Below are positions 781 to 53,672 of a stretch of 64,000 nt of DNA, one piece after another. The notes under the pieces were generated by a model, which did no database searches, was not told where the DNA came from, and saw only the letters and a list, made by a program, of their open reading frames with translations. Within the stretch, counting starts at the first letter, position 1. Each line of letters opens with the position of its first letter. The stretch is taken from assembly GCA_964597925.1 (NCBI GenBank), contig CAZQZT010000002.1:39038-103037 (forward strand), in the 5' to 3' direction. The translations under genes were made by a program, and so were the position numbers. The stretch is from an uncultured Candidatus Saccharibacteria bacterium (GTDB lineage: Bacteria > Patescibacteriota > Saccharimonadia > Saccharimonadales > JBBQAJ01).

Positions 781-1733
781 TTGACACAAGCATTATGCTG
801 CCCTCGCCCGTGGGGGCAGGAATATAAATGTCAGGATTGCTTACTTTACTGGTGAATTAATGAGTTTCCCTAGTACCAGTTCAAACATTGGCGTGTCGCT
901 TTTCCGGTTTGAATAACGGAAAGCATACTCGTTAGCGTAGTGTTGGAGATACTGTTTGTCGCAGTGCCGGTAGACACCGTAGATGCCTCGTTTGAATTGG
1001 CTCCAGAAGTTCTCAACGTTTTGGGTGTGGACTCGACCCACAACGTACTGGTGGATGCTGTGGTTAACGGTTTGATGCTCATAGCCACGTCGTTTAAGTA
1101 GCTTATATGAGCCATGTTCATCGCTATAGATAGTCGCTGATTGATCAATGTTCTTTTGAATCTCTGGAACAAGTATTCGTGTACCGGAACTCTTGACGTG
1201 CTTTATCCGAGCTCGACCACCACGTTCTACCATACCAAAGATAACTTGGCTGTTGTGTGGTTTAGCTGTACTACGTCTTTGAGGGTTGGGGTGTATGTAG
1301 ACTTCATCAACTTCAACATCATCGTTAAGCAAGCTTTCATCGTCAGCCATCATAAGCCGGACTTGTTTAAAGATACGCCAAGCTGTTTTATACGTTACTC
1401 CACTAATACGCTGGAACTGTAAAGCTGACATACCCGAACGGGTATTAGTCATAAAGAAGATAGCCAGAAGCCATGTTCTTAGGTCTGTAGTGGATTTATG
1501 GAACGGTGTGCCAGCTAGCGGATAAACTTGAGCACCACACTGGCACTGGTAGGCTGGACGACCAGGTAGCTTATGAAAGCCATTGTAGAGACCACAAGTA
1601 GTGCAGGGCTTATCTTCAAAGTGCATCTGCCATAAGTAGTCCAAACAGGAGTCGCTAGTCGGGAACTTTTCGTTAAACTGTCGCATCGTGAACTTCATAA
1701 TTACAGTTTACACCACTGTTAATATGGTGTCAA
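781..1733 (-). mobile_element. IS1595-family insertion sequence (ends approximate)
   Basis: Contains a single transposase ORF. The only terminal inverted repeat I found by eye is short: TTGACAC at 781..787 versus GTGTCAA at 1727..1733. No target-site duplication was recognised, so the boundaries are uncertain. Confidence 0.45.
841..1698 (-). CDS. IS1595-family (ISXO2-like) transposase
   Basis: 285 aa. Cys-rich N-terminal zinc-ribbon-like region (KPCTTCG...YQCQCG) followed by a DDE-type core (VDEVYI..., IYSDEHGSY...), as in IS1595/ISXO2-like transposases. Confidence 0.75.
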   Translation of the reverse strand: MKFTMRQFNEKFPTSDSCLDYLWQMHFEDKPCTTCGLYNGFHKLPGRPAYQCQCGAQVYPLAGTPFHKSTTDLRTWLLAIFFMTNTRSGMSALQFQRISGVTYKTAWRIFKQVRLMMADDESLLNDDVEVDEVYIHPNPQRRSTAKPHNSQVIFGMVERGGRARIKHVKSSGTRILVPEIQKNIDQSATIYSDEHGSYKLLKRRGYEHQTVNHSIHQYVVGRVHTQNVENFWSQFKRGIYGVYRHCDKQYLQHYANEYAFRYSNRKSDTPMFELVLGKLINSPVK

Positions 1734-5851: not shown

Positions 5852-8137
5852 ATGGCGAAAAACCTAGTTATCGTGGAGAGCCCAGCCAAAGCCAAGACTA
5901 TAGAGAAGTTTTTGGGCAAAGACTACTCTGTTAAAAGTAGCTTCGGACATATCCGGGACCTACCAAAAAAAGGTCTCAACATCGATATAGCCAACAGTTT
6001 TGCGCCTACATACGCCGTACCGGCCGAAAAATCCAAAGTTGTCCGTGAGCTAAAAGCCGCCGCAAAAGGCGCCACCGTTTGGCTAGCCAGTGATGAAGAC
6101 CGTGAAGGAGAGGCCATTGCCTGGCATCTCTGCGAAGCGCTTGGACTCAAGCCAGCTGAAACCAAACGAATAGTGTTTCATGAAATTACCAAATCAGCCA
6201 TAGAAGAGGCTGTAAAAAACCCACGTACTGTTGACATCAAACTAGTAGACGCACAACAAGCACGACGAATTCTAGACCGCTTAGTGGGCTATGAACTCAG
6301 TCCCGTGCTGTGGAAAAAAGTTAGAGCAGGGTTATCTGCAGGCCGGGTACAGTCTGTAGCTGTACGACTGATAGTAGAGCGGGAACGGGAGATCAAAGCA
6401 TTTGAAGCAGAGGGTACATATAAAGTTATAGGTTCCTTTAACGGAGGTGAGGATTTTGACGCAGAACTAAACAGCCGATTAGCAGACGTAACTACAACCG
6501 AAAAGTTCCTAAACGACGCCAAACTTTCGACCTACAAAATAGCCAGCATCGACCAAAAGCCAAGTACTCGTAACCCGAGCGCTCCGTTTACTACCAGCAC
6601 GCTTCAGCAAGAAGCAGCCCGCCGGCTAGGATTTGGCGTCCGCCAAACTATGACCTTAGCCCAGCGACTGTACGAAAACGGCGACATTACCTATATGCGT
6701 ACAGACAGCACCACACTGTCTGGCCAAGCCATCAAAGCCGCAGAACAATACATCAAAAAGGAGTACGGCAACGACTACTGGCAAGTGCGCCAGTATAAAA
6801 CCAAAAACTCCAGCGCACAGGAAGCTCACGAAGCCATCAGGCCAACCAGTTTCAACAAACTGAGCGCTGGTACAGATGAGCAGCAAAAAAAGCTTTATGG
6901 GCTAATTTGGCGCCGTGCTTTAGCTAGCCAGATGGCACCCGCACAAGTAGATCGTACTGAAGTAAACATAGCCATGAGTGACAGGCCAGAGATGTTTGTT
7001 GCAAAGGGTGAAGTTCTAAAGTTTGACGGTTTTTTCAAAGTCTATGGTGGAGGCAAAGACGACACCATACTACCTCCGGTAAAAGATGGTCAAACGCTAG
7101 ACTTAAAAGGTATCCTGGCCACAGAAACATATAATCGCCCTCCTGCCCGCTACAGCGAAGCCAGCCTAGTGCGCAAACTAGAAGAACTAGGAATTGGCAG
7201 ACCGAGCACCTATGCGCCGACCATTAGTACCATCCAGACTCGAGAGTATGTGGAAAAAGCTGATTTGGAAGGCAAAGAGCGTAAAATAACTTTTCTAAAA
7301 CTAGAAAACGGAAATGTAGAAACAGGGAAAACTATCGAAATAACGGGTGCAGATAAAAACAAACTAATGCCTACCTCTGTGGCTGATGTTACTACTGACT
7401 TTTTGGTCAAACACTTCGGCACCGTTCTAGATTACGACTTTACCGCCAAAGTAGAGCAAAAGTTTGACGACATAGCCGAAGGCAAAGAGTCTTGGGTAAA
7501 AATGCTCGAAGACTTTTATAAAGACTTTCACCCGCTTGTAGAAAAGTCCGCAAAAGTCAGCCGTGAAGAAACCAGCCAAGCCCGCCAGCTGGGCGATGAC
7601 CCAGGCAATGGCAAGCCCATCATGGCTCGTTACGGCCGTTATGGGCCTATGCTACAACGAGGCGTAACCGAAAGTGAAGAAAAACCAGACTTTGCCCCTA
7701 TGCCAGAAGGCTTAACACTAGAAAACGTAACGCTTGAGCAAGCCCTAGAAATGTTCAAGCTCCCACGACTAGTAGGCACTACAGAAGACGGCAAAGACAT
7801 AAAGTCGAACATCGGCCGTTTTGGCCCGTATATAGTAGTAGATAAACTGTTTGTATCTATAAAACCACACGACCCGTTTAAGGTTACCGAAGAAGAAGCC
7901 CGGGAATTGTACGCCGAAAAGTTAGAAAAAGAAGCCAACAAATACATTGCCCAGTTCAAAAGTGGCATAAACATAGTAAACGGCCCATACGGTCCGTATG
8001 TAACCGATGGCAAAAAGAACGCCCGCATAGCCAAAGACACAGACGCCACCAAGATTACCGAAGCGCAGGCCAAGGAAATGATTGCCAAAGCCCCCGCCAA
8101 AAAAAAGAAACGCTTCGTCCGCCGCACTAAAAAGTAG
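5852..8137 (+). CDS. topA: DNA topoisomerase I (type IA)
   Basis: Toprim start MAKNLVIVESPAKAKTIEKFLG, DEDREGEAI, active-site region ITYMRTDS, and C-terminal repeats (GRFGPYI / NGPYGPYV) with a Lys-rich tail instead of Zn fingers. Confidence 0.92.
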   Translation: MAKNLVIVESPAKAKTIEKFLGKDYSVKSSFGHIRDLPKKGLNIDIANSFAPTYAVPAEKSKVVRELKAAAKGATVWLASDEDREGEAIAWHLCEALGLKPAETKRIVFHEITKSAIEEAVKNPRTVDIKLVDAQQARRILDRLVGYELSPVLWKKVRAGLSAGRVQSVAVRLIVEREREIKAFEAEGTYKVIGSFNGGEDFDAELNSRLADVTTTEKFLNDAKLSTYKIASIDQKPSTRNPSAPFTTSTLQQEAARRLGFGVRQTMTLAQRLYENGDITYMRTDSTTLSGQAIKAAEQYIKKEYGNDYWQVRQYKTKNSSAQEAHEAIRPTSFNKLSAGTDEQQKKLYGLIWRRALASQMAPAQVDRTEVNIAMSDRPEMFVAKGEVLKFDGFFKVYGGGKDDTILPPVKDGQTLDLKGILATETYNRPPARYSEASLVRKLEELGIGRPSTYAPTISTIQTREYVEKADLEGKERKITFLKLENGNVETGKTIEITGADKNKLMPTSVADVTTDFLVKHFGTVLDYDFTAKVEQKFDDIAEGKESWVKMLEDFYKDFHPLVEKSAKVSREETSQARQLGDDPGNGKPIMARYGRYGPMLQRGVTESEEKPDFAPMPEGLTLENVTLEQALEMFKLPRLVGTTEDGKDIKSNIGRFGPYIVVDKLFVSIKPHDPFKVTEEEARELYAEKLEKEANKYIAQFKSGINIVNGPYGPYVTDGKKNARIAKDTDATKITEAQAKEMIAKAPAKKKKRFVRRTKK

Positions 8138-21106: not shown

Positions 21107-21598
21107 CTACGGATAAACGTGGAAGTTCACCGTCGCGAGGATGGTGCCCTTACCAGTGCTGCTGACCGAGTACAGCCAAGCCGTGCAGTCAGCCTCCCCG
21201 CCAGTCCATGTAGACGAGGAAAGCGTCAGGATCTTATTCCACGGCCACGCGTAGGACTCGAAATAACCGGCATGCCCCGCGGCGACCAACGTGCCGTTCT
21301 GGTAGCACCCCAGGTCGAGGAAGGGCTGCGTCGTGGCGGTGGTCGCCACCTCGAATGTCACCCGCTGGCCGTAGTGAGCCAGCCCGTCGGTTGAGTCGAG
21401 CAGAACCAGACTCAACGACGAACCGGGGCTATTTGACTTGCCAGCGCCGCTATTTGGATTGCCCTTACCCTGAGGCTGAGCCGCCAAGCTTATAGCTACG
21501 GCAGAGGTTCCGATTACTGCAAATATTAGTGCGAAAATTAGGATACGATTGCGCGAGAACTTAACTTTTCTTTTTAATGGATGTGATTTTTTTGGCAT
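21107..21598 (-). CDS. Membrane-anchored/secreted small protein, paralog A (two-Cys beta-rich C-terminal domain)
   Basis: 163 aa. N-terminal basic stretch plus hydrophobic anchor (ILIFALIFAVIGTSAVAISLAA), a Gly/Ser/Pro linker, then LVLLDSTDGLAHYGQRVT...CYQNG...ADCTA...FHVYP. Confidence 0.7.
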   Translation of the reverse strand: MPKKSHPLKRKVKFSRNRILIFALIFAVIGTSAVAISLAAQPQGKGNPNSGAGKSNSPGSSLSLVLLDSTDGLAHYGQRVTFEVATTATTQPFLDLGCYQNGTLVAAGHAGYFESYAWPWNKILTLSSSTWTGGEADCTAWLYSVSSTGKGTILATVNFHVYP

Positions 21599-21733: not shown

Positions 21734-22225
21734 CTATGGATAAACGTGGAAGTTCAACGTCGCGAGGGTGGTGGTCTTACCAGTGTTGCTGGCCGAGTAC
21801 AGCCGAGCCGTGCAGTCAGCCGCCCCGCCAGTCCACGTAAACGAGGAAAGCTCCATGACCTGGTTCCACGGCCACGGGTCCCACTCGAAGAAGCCGGCAT
21901 ACCCCGCGGCGACCAACGTGCCGTTCTGGTAACACAACAGGTCGAGGAAGGGCTCTGTCGTAGCGGTGGTCGCCACGGTGTATGTCACCCGCTGGCCGTA
22001 GTGAGCCAGCCCGTCGGTTGAGTCGAGCAGAACCAGACTCAACGACGAACCGGGGCTATTTGACTTGCCAGCGCCGCTATTTGGATTGCCCTTACCCTGA
22101 GGCTGAGCCGCCAAGCTTATAGCTACGGCAGAGGTTCCGATTACTGCAAATATTAGTGCGAAAATTAGGATACGATTGCGCGAGAACTTAACTTTTCTTT
22201 TTAATGGATGTGATTTTTTTGGCAT
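21734..22225 (-). CDS. Membrane-anchored/secreted small protein, paralog B
   Basis: 163 aa. The first ~80 aa are identical to paralog A. The C-terminal ~80 aa differ at about 20 positions while keeping both Cys residues and the domain ends. Confidence 0.7.
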   Translation of the reverse strand: MPKKSHPLKRKVKFSRNRILIFALIFAVIGTSAVAISLAAQPQGKGNPNSGAGKSNSPGSSLSLVLLDSTDGLAHYGQRVTYTVATTATTEPFLDLLCYQNGTLVAAGYAGFFEWDPWPWNQVMELSSFTWTGGAADCTARLYSASNTGKTTTLATLNFHVYP

Positions 22226-43169: not shown

Positions 43170-44459
43170 TCACTTCGTCCAAAGTGGCGCTAAGATGTTC
43201 ATGAGCTGTTCTCGGAGCTCTTTGTTAGCAGTGCCCAAAAAGCCTGCTCCCCAGTGTGGTTTGGCAAAAAATTCATTCGTAATACTAATTATTTGTTCTT
43301 TAGTTATAGCTTTAATGCGTTCTGGAACAAGATAGTAATCTTCTACTATATCATCAAAGAAATAGCGCCCACTGTAACCTGCCGCTGTTCCGGAAACGGT
43401 TTGACCGCTACGCTGAAATCGCCCAAGTAAATACTGCTGTGCGGCTGATATATCCAAGTGAGTTACATTTCCATCGCAGACTGCTTGGATTTCTTTGGCG
43501 ATTATTGTAAATAATGCTGGAGCGTTTATTGTAGTTACCTGCGTGCCAAACCACCAGTTTGTAGCACATTTGGTCTGTAGATAGTTTGAACTCATGCCAT
43601 AAACTAGGCCTTTTTCTCTGGCTTCACCCAATATTCGCGAATGTAAAGTTTCTGTCAGCATAGTATTTACTAAACCAAGAGCATCAGCTTCATCTTCTGT
43701 AAGTCTTCTGTTTATGAACGTATCTAGATAAAAATGCATGTTTTCTACTGTGCGATTTTGAATATACAAAGGTTCTTTGAAGCCTTTTGGTTTTTCTTCG
43801 GGAAGTGCTATTCGTGCCCTGCCCCCACGCATGGACATGGTTTCAAGCAATTCCGTTAATAGCGTTTGACGGGCTGCCGTGAGTTTCCCAGCTACAACAA
43901 AGCGCATGTTACCCGTGAAGTGTGTTTTGGCGTAGTGATCGCGAATATCTTCTACTGTGACGTTTTTCATTTGCTTGATTCTTTGTTGATCTGTAAGCAC
44001 CTTGTAGCCGTATTTTTCTCTAAGTGCCAGGCTGAGATGCCGGAAATGGTTGTTTGACCTTCCAATCATTTCTTCTCTAACATTACCGTATTCAGCCTTG
44101 AATTCGTCTTCCAGAAATAGCGGCTTGCTAATTGCCACGAGAAGTAGGTTTGCTATTCGCTCCCATTCAAAATCTGCACATTCTGACTCATAAGTTATAT
44201 CGTAGCTACCTGTGCTGGCATTGCAGTATGCACCGTTTTTTTCAAACTCTGCCTGAAACGCGCGAGCCCTGGGAATTTGTTCGTTTGCCCCGAGCAACAA
44301 ATGCTCCATGAGATGAGCTGTTTCCCATTTGTCTTCTGGACACAGAAAATCACCGGCCCGAAAGTTTATCTCCATACTCATGACAGTTGCCCCGGGTACG
44401 TGAATGAATAATCCCTTGGCGCCGTTTTTTAGTGTCACTTCTTGGGCTGTATGCCTCAT
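43170..44459 (-). CDS. M16-family (pitrilysin-like) zinc peptidase
   Basis: Inverted zinc motif HLMEHLLL (HxxEH). 429 aa, two-lobed size. Confidence 0.75.
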   Translation of the reverse strand: MRHTAQEVTLKNGAKGLFIHVPGATVMSMEINFRAGDFLCPEDKWETAHLMEHLLLGANEQIPRARAFQAEFEKNGAYCNASTGSYDITYESECADFEWERIANLLLVAISKPLFLEDEFKAEYGNVREEMIGRSNNHFRHLSLALREKYGYKVLTDQQRIKQMKNVTVEDIRDHYAKTHFTGNMRFVVAGKLTAARQTLLTELLETMSMRGGRARIALPEEKPKGFKEPLYIQNRTVENMHFYLDTFINRRLTEDEADALGLVNTMLTETLHSRILGEAREKGLVYGMSSNYLQTKCATNWWFGTQVTTINAPALFTIIAKEIQAVCDGNVTHLDISAAQQYLLGRFQRSGQTVSGTAAGYSGRYFFDDIVEDYYLVPERIKAITKEQIISITNEFFAKPHWGAGFLGTANKELREQLMNILAPLWTK

Positions 44460-47080
44460 TATTTACGCTTCTTGTGTTTGGATTTTTGTTTGCGCTGTCG
44501 CTCTTGTTTACGAGCTTTTTTAAGTTTATCTTTACTCTGTTTTTTAGCGGCAGTGGCAACCTTTACTGGTACAAAATCTGTTTCTTCAAATTCATCGGCC
44601 TCAAGTATTTTATTGGCATTGTCTACAGAATGTCGCGCCGCACGCGTAAGTTCAGTTTCTACGGGACGGTTTAAGTCTACAGGCTCGGCGCTAAACAGCG
44701 CTCGAACTACTTCATGTCTCAATTGAATTTGCATCTCTTCAAACATGTGCTGACCTTGGCGCCGATATTCTACTAACGGGTCTCGCTGTCCTACGCTAAT
44801 CCAGTGAATTCCTTCGCGCATGTGGTCCATGTTTTCTAGGTGCTGCATCCATAAATTATCCAAAATCTGTAAGTAGATGTCTCGCTCTACCTTACGCATA
44901 ACTTCTTGGGTAAAGGCAACTTCACGTCCTTCGTATAGCTCTAGAGCCTCTGTATGTAGTACTTTTCCAAATTGGGTAGATTCAGTGTCGAAAAGTCGGT
45001 CTAGTGTTTCGTCTCCAAATGGGAAACTCTCTGTTATGAGAGGCTCAAATTGGTCAGACATTAACATCGGTGAAGCTGCCAATGCCTTAGTCTCATCTCC
45101 TATATACGCCACAATCCTTTTTCTGATATCAGCTTGAAGAAGTATTTCTCTACGCATGGTATATGTAGCTTTGCGATGTCGGTTCATAACGTCGTCGTAC
45201 TGAACCACGTTTTTACGAGTATCGAAGTTGTAGCCTTCTACCTTTTTCTGGGCACCTTCTAGGCTCTTGCTAATGACTCTATTTTCTATGGGTGTTTCGT
45301 CGTCCACGCCTAGACGGTCCATGATTGAACCTATTCGTTCACCGCCAAAAATACGCATCAGGTCGTCTTCTGTACTAACAAAAAACTGGGTTACGCCAGG
45401 GTCTCCCTGACGTCCAGCACGACCACGTAACTGATTGTCTATACGGCGCGATTCATGCCGTTCACTTCCTAGTACAAACAAACCGCCTAGTTCTTTAACG
45501 TCTTCATCCAGCACAATATCTGTACCACGTCCGGCAATGTTAGTAGCCAAAGTAACCGCTCCCCTTTGACCAGCTTTAGCTACTATAGAAGCTTCTTTTT
45601 CGTTGTTTTTGGCATTTAGCATCTGGTGCGGGATTTTGGCTTTTGTAAGCATGGCACTCAGAGCTTCGTTTTTTTCAATCGACACAGTACCAAGCAAAAC
45701 TGGCTGGCCCTTGTGGTATAAAGAAGCTATTTCACGGGTTATGGCCTTGAACTTGCCAGTTTCTGTGCGATATATACGATCCGTTCGGTCGTCACGGGCA
45801 AGTTTGCGGTTAGAAGGAACTTGAACTACGTCTAGTTTGTACACTTGGTGGAATTCTTCACTTTCAGTTTCTGCAGTACCAGTCATGCCGGCTAGTTTTT
45901 CGTACAGGCGGAAATAATTTTGGAATGAAATCGTTGCAAGTGTCATGGATTCTTCTTGAACTTCTACACCTTCTTTGGCTTCGATTGCCTGGTGCAGGCC
46001 TTCGTTGTAACGACGGCCCTTTAGCAAACGGCCAGTAAAGTCATCTACAATCACAACTTCTCCATCAGAGGTAACCACATAGTCTTTATCTCGATGGAAC
46101 AACGCCTGTGCTTTCAGAGCCTGTTCTAGGTGATAGATGCTACGGATGTTTTCTGTTCCATATAGGCCATTTATGCCGAGGATTTTTTCTACATGTTCTA
46201 CGCCGTCGTTGGTAAGAACTACCGACTTACGCTTTTCGTCTGTTTCGTAGTCTTCGTCTTTTTTGAGCTGACGAGTAACCTTGGCAAACTGGGCATAAGC
46301 CGTACCACTTGTTACGCTTGGTGCAGAAATGATTAGCGGCGTTCGGGCTTCATCAATTAGAATCGAGTCTACTTCGTCTACTAGGGCGTAATGTAGTTCA
46401 CGCTGGCGCAGCTGTTCCGTTTCTCGAACCATATTATCGCGCAAATAGTCAAAGCCAAATTCGTTGTTTGTGCCGTAAGTTATGTCCGCACCATAGGCTT
46501 CCTGGCGAGTACAGGGTTTCATGTGCCATAGGCGCTTGTCGTCATGGCTTTTATCTTCAAATTTTGAATCAAATATATACGATTCATCTGCAATTATAAC
46601 GCCCGTGGAAAGTCCCAAAAAATTATAGACTTCGCCCATCCATCCAGCGTCACGCCGAGCTAGGTAGTCATTTACAGTGACCACGTGAGCACCTTTGCCA
46701 GTTAAACCGTTCAGATAGACTGCTAGTGTTGCCACGAGCGTTTTACCTTCTCCTGTTTTCATTTCGGCAACTTTGCCTTCGTGCAAAACCATGCCACCAA
46801 TAAGCTGAACGTCAAAATGACGTTGACCAAGTGTTCGACGGGCTCCTTCACGAACTACAGCAAAAGCGTCTGGCAAAATTTTATCTAATGACTCCTTCTT
46901 AAGCCGGACTTTTAGAACCTCAGTTTGCTCTTTTAGCTGCTTATCAGTCATTTTTTTATATTTTGGCTCTAGGGAGTTGATATCATTAACTCGCCTACGC
47001 ATACGCCGGAGCGTTTTTGCCTGGGGATCCCCAAGAAGCTTTTTAAATACTTTATTCACTAGAATTTTTCTCCCTATCAA
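44459..47080 (-). CDS. secA: Preprotein translocase ATPase SecA (probable GTG start at 47059, VNKVFKKLLGDPQ)
   Basis: MKTGEGKTLVATL Walker A, DEVDSILIDEARTPLIIS, TNIAGRGTDI. The Lys-rich C-terminal tail has no Zn-binding Cys motif. Confidence 0.93.
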   Translation of the reverse strand: MIGRKILVNKVFKKLLGDPQAKTLRRMRRRVNDINSLEPKYKKMTDKQLKEQTEVLKVRLKKESLDKILPDAFAVVREGARRTLGQRHFDVQLIGGMVLHEGKVAEMKTGEGKTLVATLAVYLNGLTGKGAHVVTVNDYLARRDAGWMGEVYNFLGLSTGVIIADESYIFDSKFEDKSHDDKRLWHMKPCTRQEAYGADITYGTNNEFGFDYLRDNMVRETEQLRQRELHYALVDEVDSILIDEARTPLIISAPSVTSGTAYAQFAKVTRQLKKDEDYETDEKRKSVVLTNDGVEHVEKILGINGLYGTENIRSIYHLEQALKAQALFHRDKDYVVTSDGEVVIVDDFTGRLLKGRRYNEGLHQAIEAKEGVEVQEESMTLATISFQNYFRLYEKLAGMTGTAETESEEFHQVYKLDVVQVPSNRKLARDDRTDRIYRTETGKFKAITREIASLYHKGQPVLLGTVSIEKNEALSAMLTKAKIPHQMLNAKNNEKEASIVAKAGQRGAVTLATNIAGRGTDIVLDEDVKELGGLFVLGSERHESRRIDNQLRGRAGRQGDPGVTQFFVSTEDDLMRIFGGERIGSIMDRLGVDDETPIENRVISKSLEGAQKKVEGYNFDTRKNVVQYDDVMNRHRKATYTMRREILLQADIRKRIVAYIGDETKALAASPMLMSDQFEPLITESFPFGDETLDRLFDTESTQFGKVLHTEALELYEGREVAFTQEVMRKVERDIYLQILDNLWMQHLENMDHMREGIHWISVGQRDPLVEYRRQGQHMFEEMQIQLRHEVVRALFSAEPVDLNRPVETELTRAARHSVDNANKILEADEFEETDFVPVKVATAAKKQSKDKLKKARKQERQRKQKSKHKKRK

Positions 47081-49660: not shown

Positions 49661-49975
49661 CTAATATGGGACTGGCGTATAAATCGGGTTGACTGCCCCG
49701 ATAGAACTAGACCTATTCATAGTTCCTCTTGTTGCTGTGCCAAAATAAATATAGTCGCCTACTGTACCGACACCATAGAATATAACGTCGCCGTAACCGT
49801 CGCCGTCAAAGTCACCAGGGACTGGAATATAAGTACCATCAGTGGCGGGCATAGCCTTTGTCGTTTTACCAATCTTGGAGCTTGGCTCTGTATATACCCA
49901 GCTAAGGCGCTCGATTCTGGTTCTGATAAAGGAGCGCTGCCACCGCCGCTGTTTCTGCCCTGAGAGTAAAATCAT
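49661..49975 (-). CDS. Small ORF with a single FG-GAP/VCBS-like repeat; possible remnant of a larger gene
   Basis: PGDFDGDGYGDVIFYGVG is a typical FG-GAP Ca-binding loop. The 5' 74 nt overlap rsmE, so any real product probably starts at MPATDG (49852). Isolated single repeats are unusual. Confidence 0.3.
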   Translation of the reverse strand: MILLSGQKQRRWQRSFIRTRIERLSWVYTEPSSKIGKTTKAMPATDGTYIPVPGDFDGDGYGDVIFYGVGTVGDYIYFGTATRGTMNRSSSIGAVNPIYTPVPY

Positions 49976-50615
49976 GAAGATTTAGGTGTTTTATTTCTTT
50001 ATCTTTAAATAGTTGTTTTTCTACGTCGCTCCAACCACCCTCAGGTCCGACCAGTATTCCCGCTGGTTTTCCAATTTCCATTTTCCAATTTCCATTTTCC
50101 AAATCTTCGGATTGTTCACAGATGTAAAGCTGTACTTTATCTGTTAATTCTTCTAGGGCAGTGCCTACGTGCATGGGCTCACGTATATAAGGTATGTCAC
50201 TCCGACCACACTGCTCGGACGCTTCTATGATTATTTTTTCTGCACGCTCAAGGTTGAATCCGGTCTTTTCTGAGCGGTCTGCAAGCAGAGGGACGAAGTG
50301 ACTGACACCAAGTTCTGTGCATTTTTGCAAAACCCAGTCATTTTTATCCTTTTTTAGCAAACTCCAGATTAGGTAAATCTTTGTTTTGGGCATTTTGGGA
50401 CTGAGTTCTGTAACCATAATCACATGAGCTTCTTTTTCTGATAGCTCAACTAACTTATACAGCCTGTCCGTACCCTGCCCATCAAAAAGTATCAGTTCAT
50501 GACCAGCCTTAAAGCGCAGGACGTTTCGCCACTGATGAATAAGCTTTTCGTCATGCAACCAAAAATCATGCTTTAGTTCTGTGTCGGTTATGTAAAAACG
50601 ATGTAGTTTGCTCAT
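49902..50615 (-). CDS. rsmE: 16S rRNA m3U1498 methyltransferase RsmE
   Basis: HRFYI start, PUA-like N-terminus, SPOUT C-terminus (ILVGPEGGWSDVE). Confidence 0.85.
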   Translation of the reverse strand: MSKLHRFYITDTELKHDFWLHDEKLIHQWRNVLRFKAGHELILFDGQGTDRLYKLVELSEKEAHVIMVTELSPKMPKTKIYLIWSLLKKDKNDWVLQKCTELGVSHFVPLLADRSEKTGFNLERAEKIIIEASEQCGRSDIPYIREPMHVGTALEELTDKVQLYICEQSEDLENGNWKMEIGKPAGILVGPEGGWSDVEKQLFKDKEIKHLNLHDFTLRAETAAVAALLYQNQNRAP

Positions 50616-51862
50616 ATACCCTCTAGTATAGCTAAACTTTCAATATGAGGGGTTCTCGGGAAAAAATTGAAGACTTCAAAATGGATGATTTTATAGGCTA
50701 ATTGTAGTTTTTCGATATCTCTTGCTTGTGTCGCGGGATTGCAAGACAAATAGGCAATTTTTGGTGGCCTGGCTTCTAAGATTTTGTCTAATATGTGTGT
50801 ATGTAAACCAGCGCGTGGTGGGTCAAAAATGATTGGCTTGTCTGTGGTTATGTAGTCCAAGGCTTTTTCTGAAGGAACAACCAAAACGCTAGCTTTTAGC
50901 CCGCTATTTTTGGCATTTAAAACTGCCATTGCCGACGTAGCTGGATCGCTTTCTACTAAATCAACTGCTTTTTGCGCCAGACTCAAACCTATGCTCCCCA
51001 CTCCCGCATACATATCTACCATGTCATCTTCCTCGGCATATTGTTTCATACTAGCCAGAGCTAAATTAAAAACGGGTACATTTACTTGGAAGAAAGAGTC
51101 CGCATCGTATTGTAAGGCTACACCCTGCAAAGTATCTGTCAGTTTACAGTCGCCTAGCTCATGCAGCAACTCTGTCCGCACAGAAGCTGGGCTTTTGGGG
51201 TTTGAATGGTAGACGCGTAGTCCAGCTAATTCTTTGGGCAATGTGAGTTTTGGGAATGTTTTTGGCTTTATATATATAGCTCCAACTACCCTGCCCATCT
51301 GATTACAGCGAACAACTATTGTCTTCAAATCTCCAGCTCGTATAGCTCTGTTATTTAGCTCTGCAACCAGTGCATTTGCGGCCGTATCTAATGCCGGCAA
51401 CGCCAATGCACTACCTGTCACTATCTGCTTTTGATGACTGCCGCGGTTGTATAGCGCCAAATGCACACCGTCGTCATCTCCCCAAAAGGAATACTCCATT
51501 TTATTTCGGTAATGATACTCTACGCCGTCTGTTTGCAACCTAAAATCTGGTAGTTTTATGCCCGACTGCTGAAATATGTCACTGGTAATTTCTTGTTTCC
51601 AGTGGTTTTCGGTTGCAAAATTCATGATTTGCCAAGGAGATGTAGCTAAGTAGTTCTGCTCTTTTGGCTCAACGCGTTCTGGTGCCGGTTTTATAATTTT
51701 AACTGCTAAGCCTTCGGCGTAGCTCTTTTTTTTGCGCCACAACTCTACAGATACAGTTTCACCAGGCAAAGCATTCCACACAAAGACCTTACGACCGTCT
51801 GCCAATACACTTAGTCCCTGTCCGCCATGAACAAGCTTTTCTATGTTTACTGTTTCTGGCAT
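50612..51862 (-). CDS. TRAM-domain RNA (uracil-5)-methyltransferase, RlmD/TrmA family
   Basis: N-terminal TRAM (IEKLVHGGQGLS...GETVSVEL). Motif I DMYAGVGSIGLSLA, FDPPRAGL, and a catalytic Cys region (YLSCNPAT). Confidence 0.8.
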   Translation of the reverse strand: MPETVNIEKLVHGGQGLSVLADGRKVFVWNALPGETVSVELWRKKKSYAEGLAVKIIKPAPERVEPKEQNYLATSPWQIMNFATENHWKQEITSDIFQQSGIKLPDFRLQTDGVEYHYRNKMEYSFWGDDDGVHLALYNRGSHQKQIVTGSALALPALDTAANALVAELNNRAIRAGDLKTIVVRCNQMGRVVGAIYIKPKTFPKLTLPKELAGLRVYHSNPKSPASVRTELLHELGDCKLTDTLQGVALQYDADSFFQVNVPVFNLALASMKQYAEEDDMVDMYAGVGSIGLSLAQKAVDLVESDPATSAMAVLNAKNSGLKASVLVVPSEKALDYITTDKPIIFDPPRAGLHTHILDKILEARPPKIAYLSCNPATQARDIEKLQLAYKIIHFEVFNFFPRTPHIESLAILEGI

Positions 51863-51867
51863 CTAGA

Positions 51868-52794
51868 CTATTTCTTGTACAGTCCGATGATTAGAATTAC
51901 GGCAAATGCTACTTTTACGAAGATGCTTAACAGTATGTAGTTTCGTTCTGTGACTTCGTAGCTTTGCTTTGCTTTGCGTAGCCATGACTGGTTGCCAACA
52001 TATCCTGTAAAGGCCGCCAAAGTGGTGATATACAGTACATATACATACCAAGGACTACGTACTTGACCCCAAAGTAGAGTTCCAAGTGCATATACAGCAA
52101 TCATAATCCAAGGTAGCGAGCCAGTTATCAGACTAAGATAAAAATTGTTTCTTTCTGGTTTTGCCGAGTTTGCATTTTGCTTTTCGGCAAACCAGCCTAG
52201 AACACAGGTTATTACCATAAATGCTCCAATGAATTTGAGAGTCATAAGATCACGTACGCCACTTAAAAGTGCAATTACTTCGACTATCAGCGCACTTACT
52301 ACGGCCATATCTATCCAACGCCACAGCATGACATTTTTTTCTAACGAATCTTCAAATTGTTTCCTCTTTTTGGTAGCTGCCAGTAGGGGGATTATCGCAG
52401 AAACTAACAAAATAAACACGACTGCCCAGCGGAGTTCTAGGTCAAATACTGAATGAACGGCTGGTATAAATATAGCACTGGTTTTGCTTGCTAGCTCGTC
52501 TGCTGTTAGTAAGCCAGTAAAAATTTGATATGTACTGTCGTTCATCAAAAATCCTGCTGTCGCTGCTAGGATAATTGCCAACAGTCCACTGGCTAAGTTT
52601 AGTCGCTGGAGTTGAAATGTATATGGTTTTTTGACCTTTTGTGCAGTAGTAGTTTTGACCGCTTTTACAGATACTGATTTTTTGGTAGTTTTTGTTGCTT
52701 TAGTTGCTGAATTTTTACCCTGAGATCGTAGAACTGGTTTGGTAGTTTTAGATTTTGCCTTGGTTGATTTGTTCTTAGTTGTAGCCATGCGCAC
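51868..52794 (-). CDS. Heliorhodopsin-family 7-TM protein with about 60-aa Lys/Thr-rich N-terminal tail (likely ATG start at 52788)
   Basis: Seven hydrophobic segments. Blocks WRWIDMAVVSALIVEVIA, VLGWFAEKQ, GSLPWIMIAVYA and ERNYILLSIFVKVAFAVI align with heliorhodopsin TM3/TM4/TM5/TM7 blocks as I recall them, with Lys at the TM7 Schiff-base position. Confidence 0.7.
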   Translation of the reverse strand: MRMATTKNKSTKAKSKTTKPVLRSQGKNSATKATKTTKKSVSVKAVKTTTAQKVKKPYTFQLQRLNLASGLLAIILAATAGFLMNDSTYQIFTGLLTADELASKTSAIFIPAVHSVFDLELRWAVVFILLVSAIIPLLAATKKRKQFEDSLEKNVMLWRWIDMAVVSALIVEVIALLSGVRDLMTLKFIGAFMVITCVLGWFAEKQNANSAKPERNNFYLSLITGSLPWIMIAVYALGTLLWGQVRSPWYVYVLYITTLAAFTGYVGNQSWLRKAKQSYEVTERNYILLSIFVKVAFAVILIIGLYKK

Positions 52795-52795
52795 T

Positions 52796-52813
52796 ACTAT
52801 ATCATGGTAGACT
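52796..52813. promoter_or_regulatory. Back-to-back -10-like hexamers for the divergent heliorhodopsin and msrA genes
   Basis: Minus strand: TATAGT (52801..52796), 7 nt before ATG 52788. Plus strand: TAGACT (52808..52813), 6 nt before ATG 52820. The two starts are only about 30 bp apart. Confidence 0.35.
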
Positions 52814-52819
52814 TATCTT

Positions 52820-53350
52820 ATGAAAGAAGTGGCAACACTAGGTGGAGGATGTTACTGGTGTTTGGAAGCGTTTTATCAACGTATCAACGGTGTTGAGAGT
52901 GTTGTTTCTGGCTATAGTGGAGGACACCAGAAAAACCCAACATCCGAGCAAGTCTATACTATGACGACCGGCCATGCAGAAGTAGTTCAGCTGACATTTG
53001 ATCCAGAAGTTATAAGTTATAAAGAAATCTTGGAAATATTTTTTGCTATGCACGACCCCACTACCCTAAACCACCAAGGCCCAGACGTAGGTGAAGTATA
53101 TCGTTCGGTAATTTTTTATCACGACGAAACTCAAAAGAAAATCGCCCAAAACATGATAAAAAACTTCGCCCCTACCCTATACAAAGACCCGACTGTCACA
53201 GAACTAACCATGTATATGCAATTCTGGCCAGCAGATGAACACAGCCAGAACTTTTACAATAACAATCCAAACCAGGGCTACTGCCAGGTAGTAATAGACC
53301 CAAAAATCCAAAAACTCCGCGCCAAATTCGCTAATAAATTAAAAAGCTAA
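52820..53350 (+). CDS. msrA: Peptide-methionine (S)-S-oxide reductase MsrA
   Basis: ATLGGGCYWCLEAFY (GCFWC-type active site), GYSGG, GHAEVVQLTFDP, HDPTTLNHQGPDVG. Confidence 0.92.
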   Translation: MKEVATLGGGCYWCLEAFYQRINGVESVVSGYSGGHQKNPTSEQVYTMTTGHAEVVQLTFDPEVISYKEILEIFFAMHDPTTLNHQGPDVGEVYRSVIFYHDETQKKIAQNMIKNFAPTLYKDPTVTELTMYMQFWPADEHSQNFYNNNPNQGYCQVVIDPKIQKLRAKFANKLKS

Positions 53351-53369: not shown

Positions 53370-53672
53370 TTATTCCGAAACCGTTACGTCGCGCCAGAAG
53401 GCTACGTAGCCTGAAAAGTCTTTGTGTAGGCGTTCTATGGCTGTGGGAAGTGGTTCTGGGTAAGTCCAGGCGTCGTCTTTGGATAGGTTGTCACCTTGGC
53501 CGACGTTGAAATACTGGCAAACACCTTTCCAGGGGCAGGTGTATGGGGTGTCGCTCTCCTGCAAAAACTCTTGTTTGACGCTGGCGGGCGGAAAATACCA
53601 GTTGCCTTCTATATATATGAGGTCTGATTTGTCTGCTTCGGCAATTATTTGATTGTTCCAAACAGCTTTCGT
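53370..53672 (-). CDS. DUF427 domain protein; N-terminus extended beyond the first ATG to a non-canonical start (ACG 53672 or ATC 53675)
   Basis: The track ORF (53370..53564) begins mid-domain. The same frame upstream reads (I)TKAVWNNQIIAEADKSDLIYIEGNWYFPPASVKQEFLQESDT, matching the DUF427 N-terminus (MKAxWNG...EGNxYFP). An AAAGGAGA SD lies 5 nt before the ACG. There is no ATG/GTG/TTG in frame. Confidence 0.6.
   Translation of the reverse strand, partial: TKAVWNNQIIAEADKSDLIYIEGNWYFPPASVKQEFLQESDTPYTCPWKGVCQYFNVGQGDNLSKDDAWTYPEPLPTAIERLHKDFSGYVAFWRDVTVSE

Follow-up and report, generated by a model that had tools for sequence, protein, structure and literature searches.

The stretch of DNA analysed here, referred to as the window, spans 64,000 nt of contig CAZQZT010000002.1 from an uncultured Candidatus Saccharibacteria bacterium. 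Its minus strand carries an open reading frame (ORF), 51868..52794, which we confirmed and whose product is, judging from sequence profiles and a structural model, a divergent member of the heliorhodopsin (HeR) family with the seven-transmembrane (7-TM) HeR fold and a long polybasic N-terminal tail. The mechanical start of this ORF is GTG 52794. The true start is most likely ATG 52788, two codons further in, which yields a tailed heliorhodopsin-family coding sequence of 306 aa (51868..52788; ATG 52786-52788, stop TAG 51868-51870) with the N-terminus MATTKNKSTKAK (MATTKNK...). An identical 306-aa product is present in public gene calls on 12 contigs. Divergent from the HeR gene on the plus strand lies msrA (52820..53350), encoding a type I enzyme with a GCYWC active site (PF01625, E=9e-58), and the two ATGs are 31 nt apart.

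An extended -10 element, TGATATAGT (52796-52804, minus), stands 7 nt 5' of the HeR ATG, and no Shine-Dalgarno sequence was found ahead of this ATG. A promoter consensus scan returned TTCATA-17-TATAGT with an upstream TG at the HeR start. The arrangement TGnTAnnnT, 6-7 nt, ATG occurred in 10/10 of the related loci first examined, and the TG and TAnnnT are invariant through a 22-locus DNA alignment. Since the extended -10 lies only 7 nt before the ATG, the HeR mRNA is probably leaderless and begins at ATG 52788. TATAAT-like -10 boxes also lie 6-12 nt before many other ATGs of the window without a Shine-Dalgarno sequence (for example 2365, 3729, 19089, 19619, 24081, 30780, 42066, 59089 and 60272), which suggests that leaderless transcripts are common in the source genome. 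There is no in-frame ATG, GTG or TTG between codon 1 and codon 70, the latter being within TM1; the tail must therefore be translated and cannot be bypassed, as an earlier note on this DNA had argued. The contrary explanation, that the tail results from faulty annotation of a protein whose translation begins downstream, can appeal only to the general unreliability of start calls at low-complexity N-termini. It conflicts with the lack of any usable start before TM1, with the extended -10 conserved 6-7 nt before the ATG in related loci, and with the MATT start kept in 65 of 75 aligned homologs. We consider it effectively refuted, with a negligible chance of being correct.

Profile searches placed the protein in the HeR family, as the earlier note had proposed, with both relevant models scoring above their curated cutoffs. 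Pfam PF18761 (Heliorhodopsin) matched at E=1.9e-31 with 109.7 bits against a cutoff of 26.7 and covered profile positions 1-238 of 242, and the NCBIfam HeR equivalog NF038020 matched with 111.9 bits against a cutoff of 100. The four HeR sequence blocks given in that note align exactly as stated there. The best PDB sequence matches were 48C12 and TaHeR, to which the window protein is only 21-24% identical, and relatives of the protein are already auto-annotated as heliorhodopsin HeR. An AlphaFold2 model built from 75 homologs (pLDDT 86, pTM 0.78) contains the seven helices expected from the sequence and superposes on solved HeRs. Foldseek aligned it to TaHeR (6is6) at E=5.9e-13 with a target-normalised TM-score of 0.90 and an rmsd of 2.0 Å, and to 48C12 (6su3/6uh3) with target-normalised TM-scores of 0.82-0.86 (0.82-0.91 for the two proteins together); the TM-score with type-1 rhodopsins was only about 0.5. 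The model also reproduces the beta-hairpin in the long first extracellular loop that is common to 48C12 and TaHeR (strands 86-97 and 106-118), and residues 1-54 have no secondary structure and a pLDDT of 47-60. Lys and Arg residues number 29 on the inner side (12 without the tail) versus 5 on the outer side, and Asp and Glu residues number 7 inside versus 6 outside. By the positive-inside rule and HeR homology, the protein is predicted to have the N-in topology of 48C12 and TaHeR, in line with the cytoplasmic tail claimed previously.

Alignment with 48C12 located the residues expected around a retinal chromophore (all minus strand). K292 (51913..51915) aligns with K241, the Schiff-base lysine of 48C12, and S288 (51925..51927) with S237, the Ser of the SxxxK motif, such that S288-I-F-V-K292 aligns with S237-L-V-A-K241. 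D160 (52309..52311) occupies the counterion position, E107 of 48C12. The lysine in TM7 and the aspartate in place of the counterion glutamate had both been predicted, and the earlier note had seen no obvious match for the conserved histidines: the equivalents of H23 and H80 are A71 and P134. Together with N101 and Y108, replaced by M154 and M161, these histidines form the polar Schiff-base cavity of 48C12, which is thus gone from the window protein. His23, His80, Asn101 and Tyr108 are near-invariant in HeR subfamily 1, and Kovalev et al. regard the polar His-lined Schiff-base cavity as a hallmark of the main HeR subfamilies (PMC7049168). This cavity is a trait of the characterised subfamilies and lies outside the Pfam family definition. 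Further departures from 48C12 are Q26 to L74, S111 to V164, N138 to M191, M141 to T194, S242 to V293 and W246 to V297. In addition, the outer half of TM3, a region that is hydrophobic in characterised HeRs (PMC7049168), carries a Glu typical of the clade, E170 (52279..52281), at V117 of 48C12.

The residues kept relative to 48C12 are L12, N16, S76, R104, W105, D127, E149, W173, Y179, F206, Q213, Y226, E230, R231, S237 (S288) and K241 (K292), and among them K241, S237, R104, W105, D127, E149, W173, F206, Y226, E230 and R231 are features by which the window protein resembles both 48C12 and TaHeR. A minimal retinal-binding set is retained, comprising K292, S288, the acidic D160, R157, W158, W227 and F260. 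According to the title of a preprint (10.1101/2020.06.24.168591), mutating the 48C12 counterion leaves the spectrum unshifted. In our clade alignment (A1) the counterion column holds 54 Asp and 12 Glu; Asp is acidic but one carbon shorter than Glu, and a crystal structure of the corresponding E108D mutant of TaHeR exists (PDB 7clj). Given the presence of K292, S288 and D160, the window protein may still bind retinal.

The tail comprises codons 1-59 (52612..52788, minus), compared with about 10 residues at this end in 48C12 and TaHeR. It is a disordered Lys/Thr/Ala/Ser-rich segment, predicted to be cytoplasmic, with 17 Lys and Arg, no Asp or Glu, a net charge of +17 and a pI of 11.2. Its coding DNA is 34% G+C versus 43.7% for the window. 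Two motifs occupy fixed positions in the tails of the clade: motif 1, MATTKNKSTKAKSKTTKP (52735..52788, minus; clade consensus MATTKKSTKAKTKTTKKP), at the extreme N-terminus, and motif 2, KATKTTKKSVSVKAVK (52654..52701, minus; clade consensus AAKTTKKSVSxKxVK), about 30 residues in. No part of the protein is better conserved than motif 1 (entropy 1.11), which occurred only at HeR N-termini in 309 kb of Saccharimonadales DNA. No other protein of the window has a tail of this K/T-rich type. Polybasic tails without the HeR motifs do exist on other window proteins, as a probable topoisomerase I (5852-8137, plus) and a probable SecA (44459-47080, minus), both identified from N-terminal sequence and size, have K/R-rich C-terminal tails. 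We rejected a recent tandem-repeat origin of the tail, as its DNA holds only a 9-nt, 2-copy trace, and also the idea that the tail DNA is mere upstream region of the msrA promoter, as loci with a co-directional msrA, or with none, have the tail just as often.

A survey of relatives revealed that the tail is a trait of a large Saccharimonadales HeR paralog clade and not a one-off fusion. A search of 5.8 billion proteins yielded 92 relatives at E<=1e-30, the named ones being Candidatus Saccharimonadales or Patescibacteria "heliorhodopsin HeR", and 683 matches, 104 of them at E<=1e-30, were obtained when 1.84 billion cluster representatives were searched exhaustively. Scored as an extension of at least 35 aa with a net charge of at least +8, the tail was present in 165 of 228 near-full-length Saccharimonadales-type relatives (~70%), and the pooled clade tails contain 25% Lys, 21% Thr, 17% Ala, 11% Ser and 1.3% Asp plus Glu. 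We found no description of a heliorhodopsin with a lysine-rich or disordered tail in the literature. The earlier suggestion of a novel fusion thus stands as regards novelty but not singularity. The available text of Bulzu et al. 2021 mentions at least 10 unnamed N-terminal HeR extension variants and discusses only the MORN and zinc-ribbon types (PMC8612252). MORN-HeR and Znf-HeR, as presented in that text, resemble the window protein in having a lineage-restricted cytoplasmic N-terminal addition that is proposed to serve signal output or anchoring. They differ in that their additions are folded domains (MORN repeats, zinc ribbon) in Firmicutes and Thermoplasmatales, whereas the Saccharimonadales tail, which that text does not name, is disordered and of low complexity with two short motifs.

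Our best explanation overall, in which we place about even confidence, is that the window protein belongs to a tailed HeR branch and acts as a membrane regulator or tether. The full mechanism, in which a non-pumping regulator or tether in the membrane combines a retinal switch, a polyanion-binding tail and coupling to msrA, is offered tentatively. The protein would not be a pump. Its 7-TM body would bind all-trans-retinal and would act as a slow light switch like other HeRs. As Saccharibacteria do not produce retinal themselves, the host or the environment would have to supply it; the phylum lacks blh and is thought to rely on retinal scavenged from hosts (PMC9296517). The polybasic tail would be the output or anchoring arm and would bind a polyanionic partner electrostatically, most likely nucleic acid (the nucleoid or ribosomal RNA), or else an acidic protein or lipid surface. 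Co-localisation with msrA would couple HeR expression to the repair of photo-oxidised methionines. Known targets of HeR regulation are glutamine synthetase, photolyase and an ABC transporter (OmrDE), all contacted via positively charged cytoplasmic loops (PMC11109279), and the tail would extend this mode of partner binding. By analogy with these regulatory HeRs, the window protein would be non-pumping and would use a positive cytoplasmic surface to bind a partner encoded nearby; it differs from them in its neighbours, which are MsrA, an RlmD/TrmA-like methyltransferase and RsmE, and in that the cytoplasmic loops of its clade are the least conserved.

Several findings weigh against this interpretation, concerning in turn the retinal site, the tail and the msrA linkage. 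At the Schiff-base column the 228 relatives have Lys in 169, Arg in 40 and another residue (A/I/L/Q/S/T/V/Y) in about 20, such that the Schiff-base Lys, retained in the window protein, is missing from ~27% of the clade. The TM7 alignment is unambiguous (ERNY...xFAxxLIxGL), there is no nearby Lys able to substitute, and a rough neighbour-joining tree requires about 27 changes in this column. Retinal-pocket positions are conserved no better than other TM positions, in the Lys and Arg subsets alike, and the His-His pair is missing from essentially the whole clade. Loop entropy in the clade is 1.61 for the extracellular and 2.22 for the cytoplasmic side, the latter being the partner surface of characterised HeRs. 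No carotenoid or retinal genes were present among the multi-TM and unassigned ORFs of the window that we scanned, and tblastn detected no second rhodopsin in the window.

These observations favour a rival explanation, in which the tailed clade is a retinal-independent, opsin-derived scaffold for membrane organisation, tethering or the sensing of another ligand at the extracellular face, and K292 is an ancestral residue not yet lost. The recurrent replacement of the Lys, a pocket whose entropy equals the TM background, the exchange of the four cavity residues for A, P, M and M, and the absence of retinal synthesis in the phylum are all to be expected under it. So is the arrangement at one related locus (L010:8970-10753), where a canonical HeR of 267 aa with H23, H80, E107 and SLVAK directly precedes a tailed paralog that has Arg in place of the Schiff-base Lys, much as in Rh-noK/proteorhodopsin pairs and with a parallel in the retinal-free FArhodopsins. 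On the other side, 73% of the clade keeps the Lys, the window protein included; in the latter, the SxxxK Ser, an acidic counterion and the residues R157, W158, W227 and F260 are present as well; and TaHeR rapidly takes up external retinal via an opening in the apoprotein (PMC9296517). We judge the retinal-independent scaffold somewhat unlikely, yet to be taken seriously, since one member in four is without the Lys and nevertheless has the tail. Overall, the case for a photoreceptor is weaker than the earlier note took it to be: the window protein has kept its Lys, but roughly a quarter of the clade has not, its pocket is not specially conserved, and the polar cavity is gone.

The tail was retained in 32 of the 40 Arg variants, which argues for selection on the tail independent of retinal. 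The presence in tandem of a canonical HeR and a tailed Arg variant at L010 indicates that the tailed proteins form a separate paralogous lineage. The canonical protein at this locus begins MTTKSIKKKP, a hint that a short basic N-terminus was the precursor of the long tail. Conservation in the clade is concentrated on the outer side also within the membrane: helix-half entropy is 1.43 for the outer and 1.75 for the inner halves (alignment A1), and the near-invariant outer motifs include D116/R120/W121, D180/K185 and T237/G241/W247/Y250. This distribution suggests that the extracellular surface is important. The conserved extracellular regions correspond to query residues 82-118, 176-182 and 241-247.

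The Lys-less members include relatives in the P0017-P0232 range and the loci L007, L008, L010 and L013, and a few more canonical-looking HeRs, with TM7 ending in SALAWQ, also lack the Lys. A literature search for Lys-less heliorhodopsins found no description of any. Locus L008 (DATLEQ010000077.1) is labelled Candidatus Limnocylindrales (Chloroflexota) and carries the full Saccharimonadales synteny block; its tailed HeR is the sister of that of L007 on the HeR tree, and on both grounds this contig is probably mis-binned. Several related metagenome-assembled genomes bear names suggestive of soil or compost catalogues, which, as far as names go, speaks for the retinal-independent scaffold.

With respect to the tail, homology searches provided no functional lead, as it matches no known binding domain in Pfam, the PDB or a protein profile search. 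Pfam returned nothing for residues 1-59 apart from a sub-threshold DUF908, and phmmer found no match to the tail in the PDB at E<=10. A tail-only profile retrieved nothing at E<=10 from 5.8 billion proteins, not even HeRs, low-complexity filtering rendering that search uninformative. The description of the tail as histone-like is therefore apt for its composition, which is basic, acid-free and disordered, but does not extend to homology with known DNA-binding tails in Pfam or the PDB. Disordered, Lys/Ala-rich, acid-free tails that bind DNA non-specifically are known, for example, from the C-termini of mycobacterial HupB and topoisomerase I and from chlamydial Hc1. By this general description the HeR tail is alike in being disordered, acid-free and highly basic; it differs in having no sequence homology to them, in its unusually high Thr/Ser content (about 31%) and lower Pro and Ala content, in carrying motifs at fixed positions, and in belonging to an integral membrane protein. 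Polyanion binding, to nucleic acid, ribosomes or anionic lipid, is a plausible role for the tail to which we give slightly less than an even chance. A generic or other role (spacer, degradation handle or by-product of the 5' element) appears doubtful, and a specific protein partner slightly more so.

The 5' end of the gene proved to be conserved at the nucleotide level, a feature the earlier note had missed. To quantify this we used the fraction of same-amino-acid pairs with the same codon across 15 loci. This identical-codon fraction is 0.75 for HeR codons 2-18, 0.45 for codons 19-59 and 0.35 for the HeR domain; for Ala codons alone the values are 0.85 versus 0.28. Codons 2-18 of control genes from the same loci (msrA, the U5 methyltransferase, the ABC permease and LysRS) gave 0.33-0.48, no different from the remainder of each gene. 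In the 22-locus DNA alignment a block from the -10 element to about +55, CATGGCTACAACTAAGAAATCAACCAAGGCAAAAACTAAAACTACCAAAAAACC (window 52735-52804, minus, ~70 nt), is conserved, and it was found only at HeR starts in 378 kb. We rejected the idea that motif 1 is a consensus shared more widely by N-termini or leaderless starts in these genomes, since it too is confined to the starts of HeR genes. When the first 100 nt of the mRNA were compared with shuffled versions, the native sequence was the less structured (z=+1.56). Rfam had no match for 52600-52900 at E<=1, and so no known RNA family accounts for the element. Because the synonymous conservation is confined to HeR starts, we infer a gene-specific constraint on the 5' end of the DNA or mRNA; the element could be an operator, a target of a small RNA or RNA-binding protein, or a leaderless ribosome-loading site. 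Because synonymous sites are conserved too, the conservation of motif 1 cannot be ascribed to protein-level selection alone.

The tail might then have no specific binding role and be a by-product of nucleotide selection on a leaderless 5' end kept unstructured, A-rich or available as a regulatory site, serving in addition at most as a spacer, topology determinant or FtsH initiation handle. The codon identity of the first 18 codons relative to the HeR domain, the weakly structured mRNA start, the low G+C content of the tail DNA and the frequency of leaderless-type -10 boxes in the window are consistent with this view. However, the nucleotide constraint spans only about 55 nt, whereas the polybasic, acid-free character runs for 40-85 aa in 165 otherwise diverging homologs. 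The rest of the tail (its length, charge and motif 2) has no comparable nucleotide constraint, and motif 2 is conserved despite weak synonymous conservation. Other leaderless-type genes of the window, for example msrA, have no such tail. Taken together, these points make a pure by-product improbable.

The third component of the proposed regulator or tether is its link to msrA. The short divergent spacer of roughly 30 bp described in the earlier note is borne out by the ATG distance given above. Within this 31-nt gap the HeR element TGATATAGT (minus) and a second extended -10-like element, TGGTAGACT (52805..52813, plus), abut back-to-back; the latter lies 6 nt before the msrA ATG and was read from the sequence, the consensus scan not having picked it up. 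Downstream of the HeR gene are two co-directional genes that the earlier note had overlooked and that are its likely operon partners. A TRAM-domain (uracil-5)-methyltransferase gene, RlmD/TrmA-like (50612..51862, minus), begins 5 nt past the HeR stop, and a gene for an RsmE-type RNA methyltransferase (49902..50615, minus) overlaps it by 4 nt. In view of this spacing and common direction, the HeR gene probably heads an operon with the two RNA methyltransferase genes, although co-transcription in compact candidate phyla radiation (CPR) genomes need not mean a common function. MsrA, the RlmD/TrmA-like methyltransferase and RsmE are all outside the ten published HeR neighbour groups (PMC11109279).

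We recovered 27 related loci, of which 24 had a clear relative and 23 were informative for the position of msrA. The block conserved over the 24 loci reads LysRS - ABC ATPase - ABC permease - (DUF427) - msrA - HeR - TRAM/U5 methyltransferase - RsmE - PD-(D/E)XK nuclease, and at 18 of the 23 informative loci the gene next to HeR on its upstream side is msrA. Two types of MsrA, only about 40% identical to each other, occupy this one position. Type I (176 aa, GCYWC) is always divergent from HeR, as in the window, and type II (about 159 aa, GCFWG) is always co-directional with it. The types are interleaved on the HeR tree, L016 (type I) and L001 (type II) being sisters, for instance; this pattern calls for either repeated replacement or repeated differential loss, with the adjacency kept each time. 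Adjacency also outlives loss of the ABC genes at L001, L006, L014 and L016.

Whether this linkage carries functional meaning is the question on which a passive explanation bears, namely that msrA adjacency is mere synteny, as expected of a compact genome. From LysRS through the PD-(D/E)XK nuclease the housekeeping genes are conserved as one block, and the msrA linkage could be partly inherited with it; five of the 23 loci have no msrA at the site; and we found no publication linking heliorhodopsin with MsrA. Passive synteny accounts poorly for two dissimilar MsrA types, each with its fixed orientation, alternating among close HeR relatives, for adjacency that survives the loss of the ABC genes, or for the two -10 elements of the divergent form abutting within 31 nt. 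We regard it as possible, though on balance not probable, and consider that there is moderate evidence for a linkage that is selected. MsrA was rejected as an unusually acidic partner for the tail, its net charge of -4 being ordinary. HeR neighbourhoods are enriched in oxidative-stress genes according to the available text of Bulzu et al. 2021 (PMC8612252), and the msrA association fits the oxidative-stress link proposed there and by Chiriac 2022.

The evidence on retinal, tail and msrA can also be combined differently: the clade, as an offshoot of heliorhodopsins specific to Saccharibacteria, may have largely shed light sensing and need retinal only optionally, with the HeR scaffold and its arm holding nucleic acid, ribosomes or some other polyanion at the membrane of these ultra-small episymbionts, under the control of the ~70-nt 5' element on a leaderless mRNA and coupled to msrA. 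We think this combination unlikely. Recurrent loss of the Schiff-base Lys has a known parallel among type-1 rhodopsins, where Rh-noK pairs in tandem with proteorhodopsin and FArhodopsins are retinal-free (PMC10308929; bioRxiv 10.1101/2025.04.29.651185). Those proteins likewise form rhodopsin-fold paralog clades in streamlined genomes, with recurrent Lys loss, a degraded pocket and sometimes a canonical partner in tandem, as at L010. They differ in belonging to the type-1 rhodopsins and not to the heliorhodopsin family, and in that the window protein retains K292.

Returning to the tailed regulator or tether, the subfamily is apparently undescribed and structurally atypical, with its recurrent loss of the retinal Lys, its re-established msrA neighbour and its 5' nucleotide element. 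To our knowledge HeR function is largely open, only three cases of partner regulation and one viral proton transporter having been described. A built-in cytoplasmic arm offers a handle for seeking the HeR partner, the natural Lys-to-Arg variants are ready-made "dark" controls, and the tandem pair of canonical HeR and tailed variant is a further handle on function. The repeatedly re-established MsrA link makes the connection between HeRs and photo-oxidative stress directly testable. Loss of the retinal site within the heliorhodopsin family may be the first documented, paralleling that in Rh-noK and FArhodopsins, and with the pigment site missing from a quarter of its members, the tailed clade could be wholly independent of light. 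In the synonymous conservation of its first 18 codons, the gene also reveals a candidate cis-regulatory element of Saccharibacteria, a phylum whose gene regulation is, as far as we know, very little characterised.

Elsewhere in the window, no Rfam family reached its gathering score over the whole 64 kb, and no tRNA, rRNA or riboswitch was detected. The DUF427 gene of the synteny block (53373-53672, minus) is intact over 100 codons and 68% identical to its L010 homolog, with Ile (ATH) at the position of the relatives' GTG start. As this Ile codon replaces the start, the ORF listing shows a 64-aa DUF427 fragment only (53370..53564). We rejected the view that this fragment is a truncated pseudogene, the gene merely lacking an ATG, GTG or TTG start, and it may use a non-canonical start codon. 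Two adjacent 163-aa ORFs, 21107-21598 and 21734-22225 (both minus), have identical N-terminal sequences (MPKKSHPLKRKVKFSRNRILIFALIFAVIGTSAVAISLAA...), which suggests tandem duplication of a gene for a small single-pass membrane protein. At the edge of this otherwise housekeeping region, 841-1698 (minus) encodes an IS1595/ISXO2-like DDE transposase (PF12762, E=1e-37).

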